Below are positions 1 to 29,601 of a DNA stretch of 64,000 nucleotides, piece by piece; position 1 is the stretch's first letter; each line of letters opens with the position of its first letter. The stretch spans positions 82,971-146,970 of the forward strand of contig CAVQFA010000003.1 in the NCBI GenBank assembly GCA_963711735.1. The letters are read 5' to 3'. This DNA comes from Candidatus Gottesmanbacteria bacterium (lineage in GTDB: Bacteria > Patescibacteriota > Microgenomatia > UBA10105 > UBA927). The notes below the pieces were generated by a model. It did no database searches, was not told the origin of the DNA, and saw only the letters and a program-made list of their open reading frames with translations. The position numbers and the translations under genes are program-made.

Positions 1-1234
1 ATCCTCTCACTCCCGTATAAATCGTTCTGGTTTGGTCACCAAATGAAACAGTCAGAAGTATGAGCTTCTCACTTTTTTCCACATTTTCCGCTTGCTCTAC
101 CTTCCCTACTCGAATTTCCATCTTCCCAAAATCATCAACGCTGATTTTCCCGTTTTCAGTTTTAATTTCAGTTACAACAGACAACTTACTGCTATACTTA
201 TTTACCAACCCCACTGCTTCCCGTACCTCTTTCATGGTTTCGTTGGCTACTTTTACAGCCTTTGTTCTCCCCTTTTCCAATATATCTGTAACCATTTCCC
301 TGTTTCTTTTAAACTCCTCATACCGTTTCCGTGATCCTTCAAACGTTTTCATAAGAGAGGTAAACAAATACTCTTTGATCTCCACGTCTGCCACTTTTCC
401 GTGCTTATATGCTTCTTTATATTCATCAACGGTTTGACGATCCCCGAAGAAATCCAGATAGCGAAACACCATATTCCCTTCCACATGTCCCGGGTCATTC
501 GCGTGCGCCCGGGTCGGATCGGTAAACGAGCTCATCACCTGTTTTTTTATAATTTCCTCCGGTTCGAAAATGGAGATAATGTTCCCAAGTGACTTGCTCA
601 TTTTCCGTTTGCCGTCGGTCCCTAATACCGACGCGACGTCTTCCGGAATATAAGGCTCTGGCAAAGGAAAGATGGGTTTTTTAAACGTCTTGTTAAACCT
701 TTCGGCAACGTCTCTGGCAATTTCCACATGCTGCTTCTGATCCTTGCCCACGGGCACATAGTCAGGTTTATACATGAGGATGTCCGCAGCCATGAGAATC
801 GGGTAGTTAAATAACCCTAAATTTATCTCGTCTTCCATCACGTCTTTTGCGAGTTTATCTTTATATGCGTGAGCGCGCTTGAGAAGTCCCAAAGGCGTCA
901 CGTTACTCAGAATTGTCTGGAGTTCCGGGTGGAGTCCTATATCGGACTGCCGGAAAAATACCAGCTTCGAAAACTCCTGGTCCGTCAGAAATCCTTTCAG
1001 GAGTGCCAGTTCATTGAGAATGAGTGTTTCAACGTTTTTCTGTAATTGTGCTTTATCCTGTACGGTTGTGAGGGCATGCAGGTCAGCCACAAAAAGAAAA
1101 CACTCGTTATTCCGTGCCATTTGAATAAACTGCTTGACGGCTCCCAAATAATTACCGATGTGTAAACTTCCGTCTCCCGACGGCGTAATACCTGAAAGAA
1201 TCCGTTTATTTTGCAATTGCGTCTGTATATTCAT
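1..1234 (-). CDS. trpS: Tryptophanyl-tRNA synthetase fused to a C-terminal tRNA-binding (Myf/Trbp111/EMAP-like) OB domain; the C-terminus runs off the window edge
   Basis: Hand translation of the minus strand from the ATG at 1234-1232 gives MNIQTQLQNKRILSGITPSGDGSLHIGNYLG (class I HIGH region, TrpRS type). The frame is open, with no stop, down to nt 2. The last ~80 codons read ISVDDFGKMEIRVGKVEQAENVEKSEKLILLTVSFGDQTRTIYTGVRG, the classic tRNA-binding domain signature. A GGAGG RBS sits upstream, and the ATGA overlaps the stop of the upstream racemase. This ORF is absent from the supplied track because it has no stop inside the window. Confidence 0.85.
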   Translation of the reverse strand, partial: MNIQTQLQNKRILSGITPSGDGSLHIGNYLGAVKQFIQMARNNECFLFVADLHALTTVQDKAQLQKNVETLILNELALLKGFLTDQEFSKLVFFRQSDIGLHPELQTILSNVTPLGLLKRAHAYKDKLAKDVMEDEINLGLFNYPILMAADILMYKPDYVPVGKDQKQHVEIARDVAERFNKTFKKPIFPLPEPYIPEDVASVLGTDGKRKMSKSLGNIISIFEPEEIIKKQVMSSFTDPTRAHANDPGHVEGNMVFRYLDFFGDRQTVDEYKEAYKHGKVADVEIKEYLFTSLMKTFEGSRKRYEEFKRNREMVTDILEKGRTKAVKVANETMKEVREAVGLVNKYSSKLSVVTEIKTENGKISVDDFGKMEIRVGKVEQAENVEKSEKLILLTVSFGDQTRTIYTGVRG

Positions 1235-2100: not shown

Positions 2101-2739
2101 TCGGTTTGTGTGAATATGGTTATACTTTATTCCACGGTGCTACCAGCCTCCCGACTAGAGGTAAAATGCCAATAATATGCGCTGGTACATACGTTTTTCA
2201 TAGACAACATTCAGTATATCACACCCGGTCAAATATAAAATGCTATAATAAAAGTCATGTCATTCCCGAAACTTGCAGTTTCTGCACGCAAAATCCACCG
2301 GTTTCTCGTCATTTTTATCGTTATTCTGGGTTTGATCAATGATGATAACGGGAACAACGATGAAGTACCCCAACCTTATGCCGATCGATCCGTTCCTCGC
2401 GCGCCGCACACATAATATAGTCAGTACTTTTTTCTCAATAATTCTCCTGGGCATGATGCTAACGGGTTCATATTTGTTCCTTTTCCCGTGGCTTATAAAA
2501 ACATTCAGGAATAAACCCACTCCTAACCAACCGCAGGAATAATCTTAGGAATTCTTCACTTTGCTTGATTATTTATATTTTTACTGCGGGTGGCGCGTAT
2601 TTTGGGACCCGACAGCGCGCAAGGATCGGGTGGATCAGGAGATGTAATAATTTCAATATAATATAACTCGGTAAGCATTCTATTATTACAACGTTAAGAA
2701 AACTGAGCACTGGCGGGAAAATAATACGCGACAGGACCC

Positions 2740-3336
2740 GTGAGTGTATTTGTTACAATACAGTGTATGTCTGATTTATACCTTCGGATTGTTCTTTTTC
2801 TGTCTCTTGCCGCAATTGCGCTTACTTGGACGTTCACGAGTCCGAAGAATTTTTTCAAATTCCTCTCAACCCTCCCCCAACCGCGCTATTGGATCATGCT
2901 CGGATACCAGCTTCTTCCTTTCCTGCAGCTGGGAGATGTTGTACGCGTGTCGTGGATGCCGAATGCATTCAGTGCAATTTGTATTTTTTCAGGAATAATT
3001 ATCCTGTGGTGCGGCATTATTCTTGCTGCTTGGGCAAAAATTGTGATGAAAACCAACTGGGGACGCCCGGGTCAGCATGATATCCGCAAACAGCATACGC
3101 TCGTGACCGGAGGACCGTTTGGGTATACCCGCAACCCGATTTATCTCGGACTCATCCTCGTATTTTTAGGATTTGAGCTTGCGATGCAGAGCTATTTAGT
3201 CATCCTCACACCCTTCCTTTATGTTTTTATGACAGTAATGATCCGGAGAGAAGAAACGCTCCTTGATTCGTATTTCGGTAATGAGTATGCGGGCTACAAA
3301 AACCGTGTCCCCCGCTTCTTCCCGTTTGTCAGATAA
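2740..3336 (+). CDS. Isoprenylcysteine carboxyl methyltransferase (ICMT/phospholipid methyltransferase) family membrane protein
   Basis: 198 aa, multi-TM. Family signature GGPFGYTRNPIYLG ... REE..L...FG.EY..Y...VPR. Confidence 0.7.
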   Translation: MSVFVTIQCMSDLYLRIVLFLSLAAIALTWTFTSPKNFFKFLSTLPQPRYWIMLGYQLLPFLQLGDVVRVSWMPNAFSAICIFSGIIILWCGIILAAWAKIVMKTNWGRPGQHDIRKQHTLVTGGPFGYTRNPIYLGLILVFLGFELAMQSYLVILTPFLYVFMTVMIRREETLLDSYFGNEYAGYKNRVPRFFPFVR

Positions 3337-3442
3337 GTTGCGCAATTTATGTGCAGAATATGGATTTTTCCTCTATTTTGCTTCAATTTTCATTGCCATC
3401 GCATGAATCTGATGCTATAATCAACGGCGTACCTTAAAGTAC

Positions 3443-3512
3443 CGCGGGGTAGTGTACAGTTGCACAGAAGGCTCATAATCTTCTAGGCTGGGTGCGACTC
3501 CCAGCCCCGCAA
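3443..3512 (+). tRNA. tRNA-like cloverleaf with a CAT anticodon. Noncanonical: C1-A72 mismatch, D-loop without GG, T-loop TGCGACT. Possibly a degenerate tRNA-Met or an attachment site
   Basis: Manual fold: acceptor GCGGGG/CCCCGC with a C1-A72 mispair; U8; D-stem GTGT/GCAC; anticodon stem GAAGG/TCTTC with loop CTCATAA (U33-CAT-A37); T-stem CTGGG/CCCAG; discriminator A. The 3' part is repeated at 4743-4789. Confidence 0.35.
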
Positions 3513-3525
3513 CATATTAAATAAT

Positions 3526-3553
3526 AACCCTCCTTGTGAGGGTTTTTATTTTA
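3526..3553 (+). terminator. Rho-independent terminator (AACCCTC-CTTGT-GAGGGTT + T-rich tail)
   Basis: Hairpin plus TTTTATTTT, seen directly in the sequence. Confidence 0.5.
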
Positions 3554-3641
3554 TCCATAGCGGGATGAAAAGCTTATCCTGTAACCGTTCTGACGTCGAT
3601 GGAATTTACAGCGCTTCAATAATCCGGGAATGAAGACTATA

Positions 3642-3890
3642 TTATTCATCCAACTCTTTTTTAGGTAAATCTTCCTCCGCCGGTCCGTTCAACACCTTAC
3701 CATCTGTATTGAAGCTAGACCCATGACACGGACAGTCCCAGGTTTTGTCCTTACCGTTCCATTCGACAACGCAGTCCAAATGGGTACACAATGCTGATAA
3801 TGCGTGTACTTTCCCTGTTTTATCTTTATATACCGCTATTTTTTCATTTTTCTGGTTTATTATTTTCCCCTCATCTGTATTCAGATCCAT
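3642..3890 (-). CDS. Small Rieske [2Fe-2S] domain protein (Rieske-type ferredoxin)
   Basis: Box I CTHLDC and box II CPCHGS. Start chosen at MDLNTDEGK because a GGAGGTG RBS sits 6 nt upstream. The track ORF extends to 3938. Confidence 0.7.
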   Translation of the reverse strand: MDLNTDEGKIINQKNEKIAVYKDKTGKVHALSALCTHLDCVVEWNGKDKTWDCPCHGSSFNTDGKVLNGPAEEDLPKKELDE

Positions 3891-4005
3891 AAAATCACCT
3901 CCGGACTTAAAAATAGAGAAGAATTCCCAACACACCATGGATTATTGCAAGTGTTATTGAAACTGCAGAAATCAAAAAATATGATACGTTCCTCAATATT
4001 TTTAT

Positions 4006-4389
4006 TTACTCCACCACAATTTTTCCGGTCATTGACGGGTGAATGGCGCAACTATAGTCAAAGCTTCCCTTAGTATTAAATGTGAACGCGAACGTATCTC
4101 CCTGGTTTAAGTCTGATGAATTAAACGCATCGGACTTAATTTTATGAGTGGCTGAGTCCTGATTTGTCCAGGTTACTTTTGTGCCTTGCTTTACGGTCAG
4201 AGTACCGGGATTAAAAGCGAAATTCTGGATTGTAACTGAGTTGGCTTCAACGGCTGTTTGCGTTTGTTGTGTTGTTTGGGGCTGTGCTGCCGGTTGCACT
4301 TGACTTGGTTTGTTTTTCATAAGGAAATATAACCCGCCTATGACTACAACAACCAATACTATTCCGATAAGTATTTTATTCATATACAT
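4006..4389 (-). CDS. Membrane-anchored type-1 copper (cupredoxin; plastocyanin/amicyanin/halocyanin-like) protein
   Basis: N-terminal TM helix, Q/T-rich linker, then a cupredoxin fold with the Cu ligands His (THKI) ... Cys-x2-His-x2-Met (YSCAIHPSM). Confidence 0.7.
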   Translation of the reverse strand: MYMNKILIGIVLVVVVIGGLYFLMKNKPSQVQPAAQPQTTQQTQTAVEANSVTIQNFAFNPGTLTVKQGTKVTWTNQDSATHKIKSDAFNSSDLNQGDTFAFTFNTKGSFDYSCAIHPSMTGKIVVE

Positions 4390-4410
4390 TCACCCCCCTT
4401 TATATTAAGG

Positions 4411-4596
4411 TTAATGATCAGAATCAACTTTAATTTCAGGTTTCTTTATTACAGTCTCCCTGGGTAAATAATGAATTAAAGCCTTCTCTACCAGAGCTGT
4501 TAAACTACAATCTTCAACTACTGCTTGAGCTTTAGCATGTTTCGCTAAATCAGGATGAATGAATAGAGTTAATCGTTGTCTATTATTAAGTGTCAT
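4411..4596 (-). CDS. Ribbon-helix-helix (CopG/Arc/MetJ-like) DNA-binding protein
   Basis: 61 aa with the RHH pattern RLTLFIHPDLAKHAK...SLTALVEKALIHYL. CACGTT half-sites lie immediately upstream. Confidence 0.5.
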   Translation of the reverse strand: MTLNNRQRLTLFIHPDLAKHAKAQAVVEDCSLTALVEKALIHYLPRETVIKKPEIKVDSDH

Positions 4597-4642
4597 ACTT
4601 CATATTATACAATTAATTGAAGTACTTGTTAAGTAATAATTG

Positions 4643-4677
4643 CACGTTAACGCTTTAAACGTGAATATATCCACGTT
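4643..4677. promoter_or_regulatory. Candidate operator: CACGTT(N9)AACGTG palindrome plus a third CACGTT half-site, 47-80 nt upstream of the RHH gene
   Basis: Seen directly in the sequence; the position is typical of RHH autoregulation sites. Confidence 0.3.
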
Positions 4678-4936
4678 CTTTTTCAATATTCTTCGTACTT
4701 TCGGCTGATAAATACAGGTTTTTGAAATAAAAACCAGGTTCGGATTTCATCTAACCCCCGCAACAAATAAAATATAAAACCCTCCCTATGAGAATTTTCT
4801 CTATCGATCACTGAGAAGAGCAGTTTGACATGAGCGGTCGAAAAGGTTCAGGTATGTAACAAAAATATATAAGCAGACCACCTTGTCCGTAAAAAAGAGT
4901 ATATTAAAATAGTATAAATTTTAATACTATATCGTT

Positions 4937-5924
4937 ATGAAACGGGACTGGATTTACGTTTTACGTGGTATAGCTATCCTTAGTGTTGTGATCGGACATG
5001 CGATAGATATGAATCCGGAATATCCGTTGCTCTGGTTTTGGAATCATCTTGCTTTTACAATCCCCTGGTTTATTTTTCTTTCGGGCACTGCAAACGCCTT
5101 GTCATTACTTCGACGTCAACAACAAGTTTCGTATATCGTCATCATACATAACGATGGTGGGCCGGATTATAAAAATTTTACCGGTCTATGCGTTGGCAGT
5201 GTATGCTGCATTAACACTGTACGCCTACCCAATTCTTGATCTTCACGATTATCTGTACAGAGTATTGTCATTTCAAACGCAACCGACGTTTTATTTTGTA
5301 TTGTTAATTATTGAACTTTATATTCTGTTCCCCCTGCTTTATGCATTATCCGGTTTCAGCAAAAAAATTCCGGGCAGATTATTAACACTGGTATTAGTTG
5401 GGTTCGTTGCATACATCTGGCCGTTTCTCAAAGCTCCATATCCGTTTGTTCCGGCGGGCATAATCATCGGAGGAGGCTTCCTGTTCATTTTTTATGCCGG
5501 AATGCTTTATGGACGATACGGTATTAAGATGCCTAGACACGGCTGGATAGCGGTGATCTGCGGTATGGTTATAACTGATTATCTGTATATAGTTTACGGG
5601 AAAAATTTAGATCACACCGCTCTTTTTTTTGTATTACTCCAGAGTTGGTCGCTGTTTCTACTGTTTGTGATAAAGAGATTAATAACTTTTATCCCAAAAG
5701 GTGTATCTGCATTCCTGGCTATAATCGGACGTCAATCTTTATATATTTTCCTTTTTCATTATGCGGTTATACATTATCTTTTTGAAAACCGACCTCATAC
5801 TATTATGCTTTTTGTCACAACCTATATAATCGGTATTACCTTACCGATTATTTTTGGTGTTTTGTATGAAAAAATATATAAGTGGATAAAATACCGGTCA
5901 TTACCCATTTTTACTGTCCGATAA
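4937..5924 (+). CDS. Acyltransferase 3 (OafA-like) family membrane protein, interrupted by a +1 frameshift near 5095-5135
   Basis: N-terminal part RDWIYVLRGIAILSVVIGH...FIFLSG is in frame 2. The continuation RIIKILPVYALAVY... is in frame 0 (track ORFs 4937-5239 and 5049-5924). Confidence 0.65.
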
Positions 5925-6102
5925 TACCCCTCCCAATAACAATATGGTCCAAAAATTCTGATCTCTACAAACCCCCGCAATGGGTGAACGAATGAAAAGG
6001 CAGATGGGTTCCGGTTGGTATACCCCGTTTTTCCGGTAACAAGAAGCTATTGATAGTGATAGTATAATAGGAAAAACGTCCGGTGAATAAATTTATCCTA
6101 TT

Positions 6103-7230
6103 ATGTATAAAGAAATAATGAGCCCGCTTCTTGACAGACTGGATTCTGAAACAATGCAGAGATTTACAAAGGACGCACTTCGTATTGCGGAATTATCTCC
6201 GGTGACTCTGAAAGTTTTAGAATTACTCGCAGATCGGCATAAAAGATTTAAAGATGAAAGATTACGGGTACAATTAGGAGGTGTTGAGTTTGAAAATCCG
6301 GTGGTTGTAGCAGCCGGTTGGGATAAAAACGGTCTTGCGGTGAAGGGGTTGTATGCTCTCGGTTTTGCCGGAGTTGAAGTCGGATCCGTTCTAACATACC
6401 CCCAACCGGGTAATCCAAAACCGAGACAATTTGTTATTGGTCCGGGCGTTGCGTTAAACAGGCGCGGGTTTGACAGTGACGGTATGGGAAAGGTAAACAG
6501 TAATCTGAGAAGATATACCAACAGCGGAATTCCTATCGGAATAAATATAGGGAAAAATAAGGAAATTCCGGATATTGCAGCCCCCTGGATGTATGCGGCT
6601 GTTACAAGGCAACTATATAGACATGCTGCATATTTTGTGGTTAATGTTTCCTCACCGAATACTCCGGGACTCAGGAGACTTCAGGAAAAGGAGCCATTAA
6701 CAGATATTGTCCGAGCGGTAAATCAAACAATGGATGAAATGGGAGGAAGAAAGCCTTTATTTGTAAAAATTGCACCGGAGTTAACACGTGAGGCTACAAA
6801 TGATGTTATTCAGGTAGTTTTGGATAATGGTTTAACAGGTATTATTGCTACAAATACCACAACAAATCCTGATATAAAAGCAAAATATGGGGAAATGTGG
6901 AAAAATGAAGCCGGGGGTATAAGCGGTGACGATTCTGTTTATAGACGTATGGCAACAGAAAAAGTTGCTCATATTTACAGAGAGACAAAAGGTGCAATTG
7001 AAATTATCGGAGTAGGCGGAATAAAAGACGCGGAAACTGCATTAGAGAAAATAAAGGCAGGTGCAAAGGTAGTTCAGGTCCTGACAGCAATTCGCGGCGA
7101 AGGACCGACGGTGGCCGGAAGAATCAACCGAGGAATTGTGGACTTCATGGAAAAGGAAGGAATAAAGAATCTCAGCGAAATAATTGGTATGAGGAATTCT
7201 GATTTCTACCAATCCCCTGTTTCGTTATAG
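6103..7230 (+). CDS. pyrD: Dihydroorotate dehydrogenase, class 2 (quinone-type) like
   Basis: 375 aa, collinear with E. coli PyrD. Motifs: NPVVVAAGWDKNG, NRRGFDSDG, VNVSSPNTPGLR, LFVKIAPEL, IIATNTT, GGISG, IIGVGGI. Confidence 0.85.
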   Translation: MYKEIMSPLLDRLDSETMQRFTKDALRIAELSPVTLKVLELLADRHKRFKDERLRVQLGGVEFENPVVVAAGWDKNGLAVKGLYALGFAGVEVGSVLTYPQPGNPKPRQFVIGPGVALNRRGFDSDGMGKVNSNLRRYTNSGIPIGINIGKNKEIPDIAAPWMYAAVTRQLYRHAAYFVVNVSSPNTPGLRRLQEKEPLTDIVRAVNQTMDEMGGRKPLFVKIAPELTREATNDVIQVVLDNGLTGIIATNTTTNPDIKAKYGEMWKNEAGGISGDDSVYRRMATEKVAHIYRETKGAIEIIGVGGIKDAETALEKIKAGAKVVQVLTAIRGEGPTVAGRINRGIVDFMEKEGIKNLSEIIGMRNSDFYQSPVSL

Positions 7231-7233
7231 AAA

Positions 7234-7255
7234 CCGCATTTCTGCGGTCTTTTCT
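7234..7255 (+). terminator. Rho-independent terminator of pyrD (CCGCA-TTTCT-GCGG + TCTTTTCT)
   Basis: Seen directly in the sequence. Confidence 0.55.
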
Positions 7256-7347
7256 ACCCTCAAATGCTCAATAATCTATTGAGAACTTGAGGGTAGTGCT
7301 GAGGTCTCATAATCATTTTATTGATTTTTGAGGGAATGTCCTCAGCA
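7254..7347. repeat. Two adjacent long imperfect palindromes (CTACCCTCAA...TTGAGGGTAG and TGCTGAGG...CCTCAGCA) between convergent genes
   Basis: 10-bp and 8-bp outer stems with inner sub-stems. The motif TTGAGGG occurs twice. Sits at the left boundary of the higher-GC island. Confidence 0.4.
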
Positions 7348-7388
7348 CAGAAAATCGTCCCCTCGCTTATTCAGCGAAAACTACTTGT

Positions 7389-8264
7389 TTACATTTCGCG
7401 CAGATTACCGGCTTTCTTCCAGCAATCGTAGTCAGCATAGAAGATGGCAATCGGCAAGCGAGGTGCAGATACTTGAGTGAACCAGCCGATGAACGGACGG
7501 TTGAAGACTAGTGGCCTCGGCTCATCCAGATCAATACCCTTGCGCATTGCCATACCAGTTGCGACTTTGACCCGGGCACCTTCCTTGTTGATCCGCAACA
7601 TGAACTGTTGATACGCTTCACTGATGTACCAGTACTGATCACTTTCATCGTGAGTATCAGCACCAACCAGGAAGCTGATGTCAGGCTTCATGTTGAAATC
7701 CACTTCGGGCACCTGTACGGTCGAGATGTTGCCAACGCGAGAATGACCCTTTGACATCGTTGTAAACGCGATGCGAATCAGATCCATCGGGCTGGTTGGC
7801 GTCGTATTGGGCATGGTGAGCCAGAGCTTGTCACCGCTTTTAGTCAGCAGACTTGCAACCTGCGAACCTTCCACAGTGAAAACAGTGTGTCCACCTTGAG
7901 GGATTTCAAACCCAGCGTGTGTCCGGTTGTCGCGGCCGTAAATCTCGCAAAGCGCAGCCTGCTTGAGCCATTCGATGAGCATGTCAAGGATCGAAACAAC
8001 GCCGATGCCCTCGAGTGGTCCGTTGAACATGGGATCAAATCCGCTGTCCGTGAGAAAACGGTTCAGTTCTTCCCAGTCAGTGGACGCTTTGGCTTTGAGA
8101 TTTGCCAGTGCACTCAACATGCCTTTGTATTGGCGGTAAAGCTCAAAGACGACGATCTGATTCTGGTTCTTGGTACCCCACTTCCGATCTGCACCCAGGT
8201 ATGCGTTTTCCAGAGTATGCAACGCATGGAAGATGGTTGTTACGTCGATCGCTTGTGTAGCCAT
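7389..8264 (-). CDS. Serpin-like protein, short form (paralog A)
   Basis: 291 aa. The C-terminal part is collinear with serpins: the breach-like LILLLKWKV, the hinge EGARVKVATGMAM (cf. EGTEAAAAT), a reactive-centre-loop-sized spacer, then FNRPFIGWF...PRLPIAIF (cf. FNRPFLFxI...PLFMGxV). The ~100 N-terminal serpin residues are missing. Confidence 0.5.
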   Translation of the reverse strand: MATQAIDVTTIFHALHTLENAYLGADRKWGTKNQNQIVVFELYRQYKGMLSALANLKAKASTDWEELNRFLTDSGFDPMFNGPLEGIGVVSILDMLIEWLKQAALCEIYGRDNRTHAGFEIPQGGHTVFTVEGSQVASLLTKSGDKLWLTMPNTTPTSPMDLIRIAFTTMSKGHSRVGNISTVQVPEVDFNMKPDISFLVGADTHDESDQYWYISEAYQQFMLRINKEGARVKVATGMAMRKGIDLDEPRPLVFNRPFIGWFTQVSAPRLPIAIFYADYDCWKKAGNLREM

Positions 8265-8323
8265 ATGATTCTCCTTGTTGTGTCGAGATAATCAGATTAA
8301 ATTGAATTGGTGAATGTCATCGC

Positions 8324-9187
8324 TTACATAAGATCACCCGGATCAGTCCAGTTCTCCTGGGTGATGTGTGCGACGAGCAGCGGTTTAGCGAGACCGTCGC
8401 GGACAATCCAGACCAGGAACGGTCGGTCGATGACGAGGTCGGGCTTCGACAAAATCGCGAATTCAAGCGTGATAGCGGCAGCTGCAGCGCTTTTGAGTAA
8501 CGCGCCCTTATCGTTCATCTTGAAGATCGTCTGCTGCTTCGCCTGGCTGATCCTCGCCTGCTGACCTGTGTTGGCGGTAGTCTCCATGTTCAGGAGCCAA
8601 CTAATATCGACAAGCTGATCGAGATCGACCATCGGGAAAACCAGGTCACCAAACTCCCTGTTGTGCTCGAGGGATGCCTGTATCTGCTCGACGTAGCTCA
8701 CGAGGTCGAAGTCAGTCGGTGGTGTCTCCATGACAGTCATAAAAACCTGATCTCCCGACTTGGTGGCAATGCAGACGACCGGTTTGGGGTGTTTGACGGA
8801 CGTATAGTAGGACATACCATTTTCCATCCGAACACCGTCATAGGTTTTACCATCTGCTGCGCGAAACTTCTCCTTCATGCCCTCCACCTTCCATTTGAGT
8901 AGTAGGATCAGGGTGGCAGCAACGCCGAAAGTGTCCTCGTCGAAATCGTCCAGCGTGATGCTGAAACCGCGCTCCTGCAAGAAACGGTTAATGTCCTCCG
9001 CACTCCAACTCGCAATCGACTCGATCTCCGAGATGCCCAGAACCTCATTGCGTGTGCGGTCGAAAAACTCAGTCAGGAAGCGCGTCTGCATCTGGTTCTG
9101 GGGACGCCAAACGCGACCCTCACCGATGATGTCATCAGCCTTACGGATAGCAGCTACGATAGGATGCATACATACTGTAGTACTCAT
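8324..9187 (-). CDS. Serpin-like protein, short form (paralog B)
   Basis: 287 aa, a paralog of 7389-8264. LILLLKWKVEGMKEKF, VFPMVDL, the hinge KGALLKSAAAAAIT and IDRPFLVWIVRDGLAKPLLVAHITQE match the serpin C-terminal signature. An AAGGAG RBS sits 8 nt upstream of the ATG. Confidence 0.5.
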   Translation of the reverse strand: MSTTVCMHPIVAAIRKADDIIGEGRVWRPQNQMQTRFLTEFFDRTRNEVLGISEIESIASWSAEDINRFLQERGFSITLDDFDEDTFGVAATLILLLKWKVEGMKEKFRAADGKTYDGVRMENGMSYYTSVKHPKPVVCIATKSGDQVFMTVMETPPTDFDLVSYVEQIQASLEHNREFGDLVFPMVDLDQLVDISWLLNMETTANTGQQARISQAKQQTIFKMNDKGALLKSAAAAAITLEFAILSKPDLVIDRPFLVWIVRDGLAKPLLVAHITQENWTDPGDLM

Positions 9188-14699: not shown

Positions 14700-14771
14700 T
14701 GCCAGAGGAGAGGATCGGACTCTCGACGCCACGCTTATGAAGCGTGTGCTCTACCACTGAGCTACTCTGGC
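14700..14771 (-). tRNA. tRNA-Met (anticodon CAT), elongator-type
   Basis: Minus strand reads GCCAGAG-TA-GCTC-AGTGGTA-GAGC-A-CACGC-TTCATAA-GCGTG-GCGTC-GAGAG-TCCGATC-CTCTC-CTCTGGC-A. Acceptor and all arms are perfect; CCA is not encoded. The overlapping track ORF 14697-14882 is spurious. Confidence 0.9.
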
Positions 14772-15418: not shown

Positions 15419-16279
15419 ATGTCCCTAGACCTGAAGACCGCTCATGCCCAATTTATCGAACACCTTACCTCACGCAGACGTGCCCGCGCTACCATCATAG
15501 CATACGCCAAGGACATCGATCAGGTGCTTGCATACCTTACAAATGCCGGAAAAAAGGATGTGACTGACGTGACGCGTGATGAAATCGAAGCGTTTCTGAA
15601 AAAACTGTCAAGCGACAGCTACACACCCAAGTCCGTTTCACGGAAAATCAACTCGATCAAGACATTTTTCCGGTTTCTCAAATCATCCGGTGCTATTACG
15701 GCTGATCCGGCAATTGAGATAGAGCATCCCAAATACGAAGTCAAACCGCCCCGGATTCTGTCTAAACTGGAGTACCGCGCCCTTCGGGATGCGTGCCGCG
15801 GTGATCTTCGTACTCATGCAATCGTTGAACTTTTTCTCCAGACAGGAGTGAGGATCGGAGAACTGGCTAATCTGACTCTAACGGACATCAAAGAAACAGA
15901 ACTTCATATCGCGCCTGAGGAAGGTCACGCAGAACGCATGGTTCCTTTAAATAAAGCAGCTAAAGATGCTCTCAACAGCTATCTTGCACAGAGAAATTCC
16001 AACGGTACAAGCCAGGCTCTTTTTATCACAAAAACAGGCAAGCCGCTTCTTATCAGAAACATCCGTACTGCAATTGACCGGTATTTCCGTGTGGCAGGTA
16101 TTGAGGGAGCCAAAGTCAATGACCTTCGGCATACATTCATCGCCCACCACCTCATTGCCGGTACACCCATCACAACCCTGTCAAAACTTGTCGGACATAA
16201 ACGTTTATCCACAACGGAAAAGTACCTGGATCTCGTCAAGGATAAGCAGACGGAAAACGTGAAGCTTGATGAGTTATAA
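15419..16279 (+). CDS. xerD: Tyrosine recombinase XerC/XerD-like
   Basis: 286 aa. The N-terminal SAM-like domain reads TIIAYAKDIDQVLAYL. The catalytic region LRHTFIAHHLIAGTPITTLSKLVGHKRLSTTEKYLDL carries the R..H..R..Y motifs. Confidence 0.8.
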   Translation: MSLDLKTAHAQFIEHLTSRRRARATIIAYAKDIDQVLAYLTNAGKKDVTDVTRDEIEAFLKKLSSDSYTPKSVSRKINSIKTFFRFLKSSGAITADPAIEIEHPKYEVKPPRILSKLEYRALRDACRGDLRTHAIVELFLQTGVRIGELANLTLTDIKETELHIAPEEGHAERMVPLNKAAKDALNSYLAQRNSNGTSQALFITKTGKPLLIRNIRTAIDRYFRVAGIEGAKVNDLRHTFIAHHLIAGTPITTLSKLVGHKRLSTTEKYLDLVKDKQTENVKLDEL

Positions 16280-16934: not shown

Positions 16935-17006
16935 TGCGCCTGCTTGGAATCGGACCAAGTACATCCACTTTATAAGAGTGGCGTTCTACCACTGAACTAC
17001 AGGCGC
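16935..17006 (-). tRNA. tRNA-Ile (anticodon TAT)
   Basis: Minus strand reads GCGCCTG-TA-GTTC-AGTGGTA-GAAC-G-CCACT-CTTATAA-AGTGG-ATGTA-CTTGG-TCCGATT-CCAAG-CAGGCGC-A. All stems are perfect, and positions 34-36 are TAT. Confidence 0.85.
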
Positions 17007-27537: not shown

Positions 27538-28869
27538 TTGACCATTTTTTTATATACACTGTACAATGTGGCCATGATAAAATCTTTCTCCGGACATTCT
27601 CTCAAAATACAACTTGCAACTAATACTCTCTCTCAATTTACCGGAAAGATCTTTTCAGCAGGATCAACATTCATCATAAGCATACTTATTGCGCGTATGT
27701 ACGGACCATCCGGATACGGTGATTTTACAAAAATTACAGCCTTTGTTGCGCTTTTTTACCTACTCGCAGATTTCGGAGTAAATGCCGTTTACCTGAAGGA
27801 AGAAGCGTCCGCGTCCCATCCTGTCTCGTGGCTTGACCTCCTTGTCGTACGGGGTGTGCTGTCAGGTTTAGCTCTCTTCCTCGCACTTTCAATCTCCGTG
27901 TTTCTTCCCGGTTCAAATACACTCGGATATCCCGCGTACATTAAACTCGGTATCATCCTGTATTTACCGACGATTGTCCTACAGGGTTTTATCACATCCG
28001 CCAACGCGGTATTTCAAAAACACCTGCGGTATGATCTGGGTGCAATTGCCGTTGGAATAGGTTCTATCCTCAGCTGCATCCTGGTATATATGACAACACA
28101 AATTATTCTTCCGGAGCGTGCTCTTTTTATTATCATTCTGTCAATAATTGCCGGACTCACAATGTCTGCAATACTCTCTCTCAAGCTCGCGTCGGACAGA
28201 AATCCGCTTGGTGTACTCCATATCGGGATCTGGAAGCGGTTACTGATCGCTTCTCTTCCGATGGGTTTAACGCTTGCAACAAACACCATATATTTCCGTG
28301 CAGACAGTATTATTCTCACGCTGACCCGGAGCGTCACGGAGGTCGGCTTATACGGATTTGCCTATAAACTTTTTGAATTTCCCCTTGTTATCCCCACGTT
28401 TATCGCTAATTCCGTTTATCCCGTTTTTCTCAAACGGTTACATGAGGGGCACGATGGACATGAATCGTTTTGGCGTGCTGTGAAAAAAACACTTGTCGTG
28501 CTTTTTATCAGCTCTCTCCCCATCACAATTTTTGCGTGGTTTTGCGCACAATACATACCCCTCATTCGTCCGGAGTTTTCAGGAAGCATACAGGCTCTTC
28601 GGATTCTTTCTATCGGTATCCCTGTTTTTTTTGTCAGCGCGGGATTGCTTTGGGCACATATAGCTCTCGGAAACAGGTGGTTTATTTTTTGGACATATCT
28701 GGCAGGAATGGTCGGAAATGTCGGGATAAACGTGCTGTTGATCCCAACCTACGGATATTTAAGCGCGAGTGTTGTAACCGTTATCTCTGAAATTATGATT
28801 ATATGTATTACAGCTTCACATCTCCGTACGGTGTATGGGAGAGACACCAAAATATTACGGTCGTCATAA
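27538..28869 (+). CDS. Polysaccharide biosynthesis protein / lipid flippase (MOP superfamily, Wzx/MurJ-like)
   Basis: 443 aa with about 14 TM. The start (MIKSFSGHSLKIQLATNTLSQFTGKIF) is typical of polysaccharide-synthesis flippases. Confidence 0.6.
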   Translation: MTIFLYTLYNVAMIKSFSGHSLKIQLATNTLSQFTGKIFSAGSTFIISILIARMYGPSGYGDFTKITAFVALFYLLADFGVNAVYLKEEASASHPVSWLDLLVVRGVLSGLALFLALSISVFLPGSNTLGYPAYIKLGIILYLPTIVLQGFITSANAVFQKHLRYDLGAIAVGIGSILSCILVYMTTQIILPERALFIIILSIIAGLTMSAILSLKLASDRNPLGVLHIGIWKRLLIASLPMGLTLATNTIYFRADSIILTLTRSVTEVGLYGFAYKLFEFPLVIPTFIANSVYPVFLKRLHEGHDGHESFWRAVKKTLVVLFISSLPITIFAWFCAQYIPLIRPEFSGSIQALRILSIGIPVFFVSAGLLWAHIALGNRWFIFWTYLAGMVGNVGINVLLIPTYGYLSASVVTVISEIMIICITASHLRTVYGRDTKILRSS

Positions 28870-28901
28870 GAAACGTTTGATGCGTTATAATCACAATACA
28901 T

Positions 28902-29333
28902 ATGACAATTCAAATATATACAGACGGTGGAGCACGCGGAAATCCCGGGCCTGCAGCGATTGGTGTTGTTGTTTTACATGATAATAAACCCGTAGCGGAA
29001 TGGGGGAAAGGGATTGGTGCTGCTTCAAATAATGTTGCAGAGTATTGGGCAGTTTCAGATGCATTGGAATACGTACATACATACGTGAAAGGTATTTCAA
29101 AAAAAGTAAAAAAAACAATTGAACATATTCATTTTTATCTTGATTCAACTCTGGTAGTAAATCAGTTAAACGGAACATTTAAAGTAAAGGATGCGAATCT
29201 CAGGGAATTTCTTATGAAAATCAGAATTCTTGAAAGGGAAGTGGGAATACCTATTTCATATACATATATTCCGAGAGAAAAAAATACACGTGCGGATTTT
29301 ATGGTTAATCGTGCACTTGATAATCTTCAATAA
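28902..29333 (+). CDS. rnhA: Ribonuclease H (RNase HI type)
   Basis: 143 aa with IYTDGGARGNPGPAAIG, NNVAEYWAV and REKNTRAD (the DEDD catalytic residues). Confidence 0.8.
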   Translation: MTIQIYTDGGARGNPGPAAIGVVVLHDNKPVAEWGKGIGAASNNVAEYWAVSDALEYVHTYVKGISKKVKKTIEHIHFYLDSTLVVNQLNGTFKVKDANLREFLMKIRILEREVGIPISYTYIPREKNTRADFMVNRALDNLQ

Positions 29334-29601
29334 ATTATTTATCTCCGGTTGTTGTGTTTTCTAAATAATCTGACAGCTGTTCTTCCTGAGTGTATATCAA
29401 AAAACTCTTCATATGATTTTTGGGTTATATGCAATAATTTACGTCGTTCGCTGTAAACTCTATATGTAAATTTATAAACTCATCCCTCTCATGTCTCATG
29501 TATGGTAAGAGGGCGGAATTTCAGTGGTATAAAAATGTTGTTTTCGGGTTCATTGTCTGGGATAATGATATGGTATATTTCCGCGTTGTATTAGTTATTG
29601 T

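Follow-up and report, generated by a model that had tools for sequence, protein, structure and literature searches.

A proposed pair of integrase-less islets at the 3′ end of an initiator tRNA gene in a Patescibacteria-like genome fragment

Tandem islands at RNA genes and the locus described here

This work describes a locus at positions 3443 to 5980 of a 64-kb stretch of DNA (referred to here as the window; GC content, 44.7%), where two segments of about 1.2 kb, cassettes A and B, follow one another downstream of an initiator tRNA-Met gene and are bounded by short direct repeats of its 3′ end. Housekeeping genes in the window include rnpA-yidC-jag at 24.1 to 26.1 kb; the closest named relatives of its PyrD protein come from Levybacteria, "Patescibacteria group," and Daviesbacteria, and the stretch looks like part of a Patescibacteria (candidate phyla radiation, or CPR) chromosome. 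Little has been documented on mobile elements or site-specific integration in genomes of this group.

For integration in tRNA and transfer-messenger RNA (tmRNA) genes, Williams reportedly distinguished, in 2002, a sublocation at the 3′ end of the gene. Under the Islander definition, islands in tRNA genes are delimited by a regenerated gene and a displaced fragment of that gene (PMC4383910). The present locus resembles islands in tRNA and tmRNA genes in that an intact target tRNA stands at one end, direct repeats of the tRNA 3′ end mark the ends, the base composition is foreign, and one unit shows a precise presence/absence difference between strains. Unlike such islands, it has no integrase, its units measure 1.2 kb, the identity with the tRNA extends over 8 nucleotides (nt), and the target is a Patescibacteria-like initiator tRNA.

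Tandem accretion and integrase-less cis-mobilizable elements (CIMEs) have been described for the integrative and conjugative element (ICE) family ICESt1/ICESt3 (PMC5704250). Like CIMEs, the cassettes keep sites of the attL and attR kind without genes for integration or transfer and lie in tandem at one attachment (att) site, and the pattern of arm similarity among the three repeat copies fits the accretion of related elements set out in the same source (PMC5704250). However, no functional partner, whether an ICE or an integrative and mobilizable element (IME), was seen here, and the units fall well below the size of described CIMEs. Protein searches and searches of phage and viral collections found no related full-length element that could serve as an ICE or IME parent of the cassettes. 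In Dehalococcoides, tandem islands occupy ssrA, 15 of them without an integration module, and a conserved motif upstream of the repeat has no match in ssrA (PMC3146451). The likeness to our locus lies in tandem units downstream of a single-copy essential RNA gene, in short repeats of its 3′ end, in a motif beside the repeat with no counterpart in the RNA gene, and in the lack of an integration module, which is also the case for many of the islands there. In contrast to the situation here, sibling islands in Dehalococcoides carry a module for a serine recombinase (DsiB), the repeats measure 20 bp, and the islands span many kilobases (PMC3146451).

On balance, we consider it rather probable that site-specific recombination brought about the accretion of both cassettes, as att-bounded islets without an integrase, at the 3′ end of the initiator tRNA gene. 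In that case, a strain-variable accessory locus would sit on an essential initiator tRNA gene and carry redox proteins and a surface-modifying acyltransferase, and its defined attB/attP pair could be used for finding the responsible recombinase. Since the proposed mechanism is standard for tRNA-associated islands, such a locus would extend known biology and not change it.

Repeat copies, their arms, and a related contig lacking cassette B

The locus was compared with L015, a 7.3-kb ENA contig that was found through a cupredoxin homologue with 94% identity and that is the sole comparator genome for this locus (~96 to 97% identical). In the features listed here, O designates the core common to the repeat copies, B and B′ the chromosomal DNA on its two sides, and P and P′ the left and right arms that each element would contribute.

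3443-3512, plus strand: initiator tRNA-Met(CAU) gene (ARAGORN, Rfam); CCA not encoded; identical in L015
3505-3512, plus strand: core copy 1 (O), CCCCGCAA, the tRNA 3′ end; attL-like, B-O-P′
3513-3546, plus strand: right arm P′(A), common to copy 2; contains the terminator at 3526-3544
3513-4755, no strand assigned: cassette A, ~1.24 kb, 37% GC; minus-strand operon (61-amino-acid [aa] protein, cupredoxin, Rieske) with its own promoter; in L015 at 92 to 98% identity
4739-4798, plus strand: repeat copy 2 (P-O-P′); left arm 4739-4755, core 4756-4763, right arm 4764-4798 with a decayed terminator copy
4764-5972, no strand assigned: cassette B, 37% GC; absent from L015, the indel being 1,217 bp including one repeat copy
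5956-5980, plus strand: repeat copy 3 (P-O-B′); left arm 5956-5972, core 5973-5980
5981-6102, plus strand: B′ flank, chromosomal DNA right of the attachment site and pyrD upstream region; contiguous with the core in L015, 94% identical

The last 8 nt of the initiator tRNA, CCCCGCAA, occur three times in the 64 kb, at 3505, 4756, and 5973, all on the plus strand and all within 2.5 kb (p ~0.001 for the same-strand clustering, given three hits). Copies 2 and 3 share a longer 11-mer, AACCCCCGCAA, at 4753 and 5970; the occurrence at 5970 to 5980 had already been reported in the first-pass annotation, a reading made from the sequence alone. That annotation had also given the intervals between repeats as 1,241 and 1,226 bp, which the core-to-core spacings of 1,251 and 1,217 nt replace, and had placed a recurrence of the tRNA 3′ end plus ~35 nt, at ~80% identity, at 4743 to 4789; the repeat itself stands and now runs from 4756 to 4798. 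It does not behave as a terminator motif scattered through the genome, as neither the core nor the AACCCTCC...GAG hairpin is present elsewhere in the 64-kb window. The 3′ ends of the two other tRNAs in the window are not repeated.

Under the favored reading, attB (B-O-B′) would be the 3′ end of the initiator tRNA-Met gene, with the crossover core inside the final 8 nt. Two small related elements, each with an att site (attP, P-O-P′) of ~70 to 80 nt composed of a left arm, a core, and a right arm, would have inserted there successively by conservative site-specific recombination. Tandem insertion of this kind should yield B-O-P′, P-O-P′, and P-O-B′, so that the product would read tRNA(B)-O-P′A, Rieske/cupredoxin operon, PA-O-P′B, acyltransferase, PB-O-B′, pyrD, and the tRNA would stay intact because the core is regenerated at each junction. 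The empty attB junction would then be …CCCAGCCCCGCAA joined to TGGGTGAACG…, and the circular forms would carry …CATCTAACCCCCGCAA joined to CATATTAAATA… for cassette A and …CTACAAACCCCCGCAA joined to CAAATAAAATA… for cassette B.

The flanks of the three copies bear on this model. Rightward of the core, copies 1 and 2 are alike (3505 to 3546 versus 4756 to 4798; 35 of 43 positions identical, one gap; p between 5e-5 and 6e-4 in anchored and gapped scoring), and leftward of it, copies 2 and 3 are alike (4739 to 4755 versus 5956 to 5972; 12 of 17 positions; register-anchored p ~0.0006 to 0.001). Gapped local scoring of the same two left arms was not significant. Copies 1 and 3 have no similarity past the core on either side, and the remaining flank pairs score zero. 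Only the flank pairs predicted by the model are therefore similar, which supports tandem integration. The bases adjoining the core travel with their flank (CAG-core-C, AAC-core-C, and AAC-core-T in copies 1 to 3), which would confine the exchange to the 8-nt core. When the P-O-P′ sites of cassettes A and B are reconstituted, the two align across most of a 92-nt span (64 of 99 alignment columns). From this arrangement we infer a site-specific recombinase as the maker of the junctions, as well as an order of integration events.

In addition, L015 provides a strain comparison. The genes that frame the locus are as follows.

2740-3336, plus strand: PEMT/ICMT-family methyltransferase, left flanking core gene; Pfam PEMT, E=2.8e-13; 98.8% identical to L015; open reading frame (ORF) coordinates, the real start probably being internal
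6103-7230, plus strand: pyrD, right flanking core gene; Pfam DHO_dh, E=3.7e-72

By BLAST, L015 is collinear with the window over 2169 to 4763 (96.9% identity) and 5970 to 7386 (96.0%), the two high-scoring segment pairs abutting at window positions 4763 and 5970 with an overlap consisting of the 11-nt AACCCCCGCAA. The order in L015 is PEMT, tRNA, copy 1, the Rieske/cupredoxin cassette, ...TCTAACCCCCGCAA joined to TGGGTGAACG..., and pyrD; with cassette B absent, the left arm of copy 2 runs straight into the right flank of copy 3. Because the breakpoints fall precisely at the repeat, cassette B is a discrete unit of 1,217 bp whose gain or loss occurred exactly at the core. The three segments thus do not form a conserved core in this relative, which is the opposite of the outcome that would have spoken against mobility. 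More distant PyrD relatives, at 56 to 79% identity (genome and metagenome contigs; P0124, P0127), have the gene in other contexts, e.g., a pyrF-E-C-D operon, with no tRNA near it, and hold no information on attB. Searches for identical copies of the window's PyrD, PEMT, and cupredoxin proteins returned no record.

Both cassettes are foreign in base composition, with a GC content in the lowest 2.7% of 1.2-kb segments (37% versus 44.7% for the window). As cassette A is present in both genomes, it is the repeat pattern and this low GC content that point to its past mobility. Serial integration at a tRNA 3′ end with regeneration of att cores, as proposed in the first-pass annotation, is supported in its central idea by att-like repeats that bound discrete units, by the arm pattern, and by L015, with the qualification that cassette A would have moved at some time in the past.

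A segment of 1.2 kb that is flanked by direct repeats and absent from a relative could also be a transposon or insertion sequence, the 11-nt repeat being its target-site duplication. We regard this as very improbable and rejected it: terminal inverted repeats and a transposase are lacking, the core is present three times, and the similarity past the core is one-sided, as in an att pattern.

Divergence from L015 is mosaic. The PEMT and tRNA genes are 99 to 100% identical, the segment at 4597 to 4752 is 70 to 86% identical, and the value for pyrD is 95.7%, with divergence gathered in a patch at 6700 to 7199. This patch and one in the Rieske gene at 3700 to 3799 suggest recombination tracts or decay of the window copy. 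Adjoining pyrD is a second hypervariable locus: two adjacent serpin-like paralogues at 7389 to 9187 (minus strand; GC content, 52%) have replacements in L015 (1417 to 3295) that are 26 to 30% identical, between flanks that are ~97 to 99% identical on both sides.

Several points weigh against accretion by site-specific recombination. The sequence shared with the tRNA amounts to only 8 nt, which is short for the repeat of a tRNA-gene island, and an 11-nt direct repeat could mediate a recombinase-independent deletion. No integrase is encoded in or beside the cassettes, which leave no spare room for a decayed one. The comparison extends to one genome and the polymorphism to cassette B alone, cassette A being in both; neither an empty attB (tRNA-O-B′) nor a circular junction was seen; and no collection searched yielded another occurrence of either cassette or of the P-O-P′ site. 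Furthermore, the P arm of cassette A matches at 12 of 17 positions between the window and L015, where neighboring DNA is 97% identical, which simple conservative recombination does not predict.

These points bear on a reading without site-specific recombination, in which the copies of the tRNA 3′ end and terminator arose by local partial duplication or by chance and the two strains differ through recombinase-independent deletion or duplication between the 11-nt repeats, by replication slippage or short-homology recombination, in a hypervariable region. The shortness of the repeat (8 to 11 nt), the lack of an integrase, and the mosaic character of the region (the Rieske and pyrD patches and the replaced serpin-like genes) all suit it. 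However, it fails to explain a left arm common to copies 2 and 3 that is not in the tRNA, a right arm common to copies 1 and 2 that is not in copy 3, the foreign composition and self-contained gene content of both intervals, and the source of the repeats, and we think it unlikely.

Cassette contents and candidate recombinases

The operon of cassette A comprises three genes behind a promoter-like site.

3642-3938, minus strand: small Rieske [2Fe-2S] protein; Pfam Rieske, E=1.4e-15
4006-4389, minus strand: membrane-anchored cupredoxin, plastocyanin/amicyanin-like; Pfam Cupredoxin_1 and Copper-bind
4411-4596, minus strand: 61-aa protein, possibly a regulator of the ribbon-helix-helix (RHH)/CopG type (weak evidence)
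4604-4632, minus strand: promoter-like site of the operon, TTAACA-17-TATAAT (motif match)

The first-pass annotation had assigned a Rieske protein, a cupredoxin, and an RHH regulator to this segment; Pfam agrees on the first two. For the 61-aa protein, the matches were DUF6364 (E=0.004), the N terminus of the slr0373 family (E=5e-9, below the cutoff), and a CopG RHH entry in the PDB (E=0.24), and a structure model was of low confidence, too poor for judging an RHH fold, so the gene is at most weakly suggestive of an RHH/CopG-like regulator. The Rieske gene is 91.6% identical to that of L015, with 13 amino acid differences clustered at 3700 to 3799; its cluster-binding motif reads CTHLDC in the window, versus the usual CTHLGC in L015. 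Further homologues of the cupredoxin (L016, L017, L024, L025, and L026) were found in unrelated contexts with neither core nor tRNA.

Cassette B holds a single gene.

4937-5924, plus strand: acyltransferase-3 gene with one frameshift; Pfam Acyl_transf_3 halves in two frames

As had been noted in the first pass, this gene is already frameshifted. Acyl_transf_3 is split between the frames 4937 to 5239 (profile positions 2 to 65) and 5049 to 5924 (positions 71 to 324), and the shift can be placed at ~5117 to 5150, since the profile resumes at position 71 after position 65 across the frame change. Homologues of 320 to 350 aa align with the downstream frame from residue ~72 on. The protein is very divergent: a remote-homology search returned 42 matches among 1.84 billion representatives, the best nonself match being 37% identical, and a word-based search found only the protein itself. 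The phage collection gave no DNA match to the cassettes, and the viral collections held no relative of the acyltransferase or the cupredoxin. A viral scan with the O-P′ consensus, a degenerate 19-mer, gave three matches without tRNAs, which is about the number estimated by chance.

No recombinase-like ORF lies within 3443 to 5980, and all ORFs in 3513 to 5972 are cargo. With no recombinase in either cassette, the two would be either what is left of larger islands after reduction or CIME-like elements moved in trans; the gene for the enzyme would then lie at another place in the genome or on an incoming element. The earlier statement that no integrase is present therefore applies to the locus and not to the window as a whole, which encodes one recombinase.

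15419-16279, plus strand: Xer-like tyrosine recombinase, 286 aa, the sole recombinase seen in the window; Pfam Phage_integrase and SAM_1

This gene is a candidate for the trans-acting enzyme. It is located 9.4 kb from the cassettes, and nothing ties the enzyme to the site. Its scores against the NCBIfam XerC, XerD, and XerA models were all below the cutoff, and those against integron-integrase models were far below it.

A chromosomal recombinase acting in trans is also the basis of a different proposal, namely, that the cassettes are natively minimal and integron-like: units of ~1.2 kb with one att site of ~75 nt, for which the tRNA 3′ end serves as attI and an enzyme such as the Xer-like protein carries out the exchange. 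Like integron arrays, the locus has small single-function cassettes that lack a recombinase of their own, sit at one site, and would retain one recombination site when circular. Their nearly equal sizes (1,251 and 1,217 nt), the complete absence of backbone genes, the relatedness of the two reconstituted att sites, the presence of an Xer-like gene in the window, and the variable presence of one cassette all accord with this. Unlike integron arrays, there is no adjacent IntI, attI, or Pc (the cassette promoter), no imperfect palindrome of the attC type, and no further copy of the site; the cassettes carry their own promoters, their genes lie in opposite orientations, and there are just two of them in one lineage. 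Folding in the manner of attC was rejected for copies 2 and 3, which form no significant hairpin and fold no better than shuffled sequences (z of −0.15 and +2.3, respectively). At ~20 kb from rnpA-yidC-jag, the locus probably lies close to the origin rather than at a dif site. We give this proposal little credence. In its most specific form, it would amount to an undescribed integron-like system of reduced-genome Patescibacteria, with ~1.2-kb units and a single ~75-nt att site exchanged at the initiator tRNA 3′ end by a trans-acting chromosomal recombinase, Xer-like or other. The prospect of this is slim; if true, tiny genomes would possess a dedicated docking site for accessory genes.

In integrative mobile elements exploiting Xer (IMEX; XerCD/dif), a comparable integrase-less tandem array occupies one site and depends on a host-encoded Xer-like recombinase. 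Here, in contrast, the site is a tRNA 3′ end with no recognizable dif; reading the site disclosed no dif-like dyad (28-bp site). An IMEX-type explanation was judged unlikely given the ~20-kb distance to rnpA-yidC-jag, the probable closeness to the origin, and the lack of a skew switch at the locus.

A separate observation concerns the arm left of the core in L015 (4707 to 4735, reverse strand), which reads GTTAG-GTTTTTT-CTAAC-CCCCGCAA, i.e., a perfect 5-bp stem with a 7-nt loop followed by the acceptor 3′ strand, in the manner of a T-arm mimic. This T-arm-like stem is not kept in copies 2 and 3 of the window.

The initiator tRNA gene, other tRNAs, and remaining observations

The favored reading takes the target to be a working gene, flanked by its own signals.

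3393-3421, plus strand: promoter-like site of the tRNA gene, TTGCCA-17-TATAAT with TG; 11/12 consensus match; 100% conserved in L015
3526-3544, both directions: bidirectional intrinsic terminator, inside right arm P′(A)

ARAGORN calls tRNA-Met(cat) at 3443 to 3513. With permissive filters, the Rfam tRNA model scores 42.2 bits (E=6e-7; gathering score, 29); a run with default filters missed the gene. The acceptor stem, CGCGGGG/CCCCGCA with C1xA72, G2-C71, C3-G70, and A73, is identical to that of E. coli tRNA-fMet. A C1xA72 mismatch is a signature of bacterial initiator tRNAs and part of the formyltransferase determinant (PMC5389676). The anticodon stem pairs A29-U41, G30-C40, and G31-U39, versus the three consecutive G-C pairs expected at 29:41, 30:40, and 31:39; the same au/GC/gu stem is a natural variant in mycoplasmas and some alphaproteobacteria (PMC5389676). 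The canonical elbow is missing: the D-loop is the 6-nt ACAGUU without G18G19, and the T-loop is UGCGACU with G55. This unusual T-arm is kept exactly in L015 and in one phage contig, which argues against random decay.

The gene is 100% identical in L015. On the basis of its initiator features, its promoter and terminator, and this identity, we regard 3443 to 3512 as a probably functional initiator tRNA gene rather than a tRNA-like relic. The earlier description of a CAT cloverleaf with atypical loops is retained; the label "tRNA-like" is dropped, and the C1-A72 mispair listed there is a hallmark of initiators. A longer hairpin at 3506 to 3564 was rejected, since its outer stem is not conserved in L015, and only the terminator at 3526 to 3544 was accepted as real.

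All three tRNAs of the window, at 3443 to 3512 (plus strand), 14700 to 14771 (minus strand), and 16935 to 17006 (minus strand), lack the near-universal U55, their T-loops being, in that order, UGCGACU (G55), UCCGAUC (C55), and UCCGAUU (C55). The canonical GGTTCGA is present in tRNAs of other retrieved loci (L019 and L025), and the departure from U55 in the window may reflect a lineage-specific shift of tRNA elbow architecture. The tRNA at 16935 to 17006 is a tRNA-Ile of a kind rarely seen in bacteria (anticodon UAU) and is located near the second tRNA-Met(CAU) at 14700 to 14771; the Xer-like gene lies between the two. Elsewhere in the window, the lowest GC content (34 to 36%) is that of the stretch at 28600 to 29400, around an ORF resembling RNase H/RVT_3 (28902 to 29333), between polysaccharide-synthesis genes and a DUF4012 protein.

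The huge-phage contig with the matching T-arm is a 159.5-kb sequence from IMG/VR (UViG_3300031873_000001), retrieved as a locus with 31 tRNA genes (L023; region 286 to 1148). A 3′ tRNA fragment at ~1118 to 1146 of L023 reproduces the T-arm plus acceptor strand of the window tRNA exactly over 26 nt, with CCA behind it, and matching 5′ tRNA fragments are found at ~289 to 354. Between these fragments are a complete tRNA-Met with T-loop UGCGAAU (355 to 426) and an HNH-like ORF (441 to 1046, minus strand), an arrangement that looks like a tRNA gene broken by an endonuclease-associated insertion.

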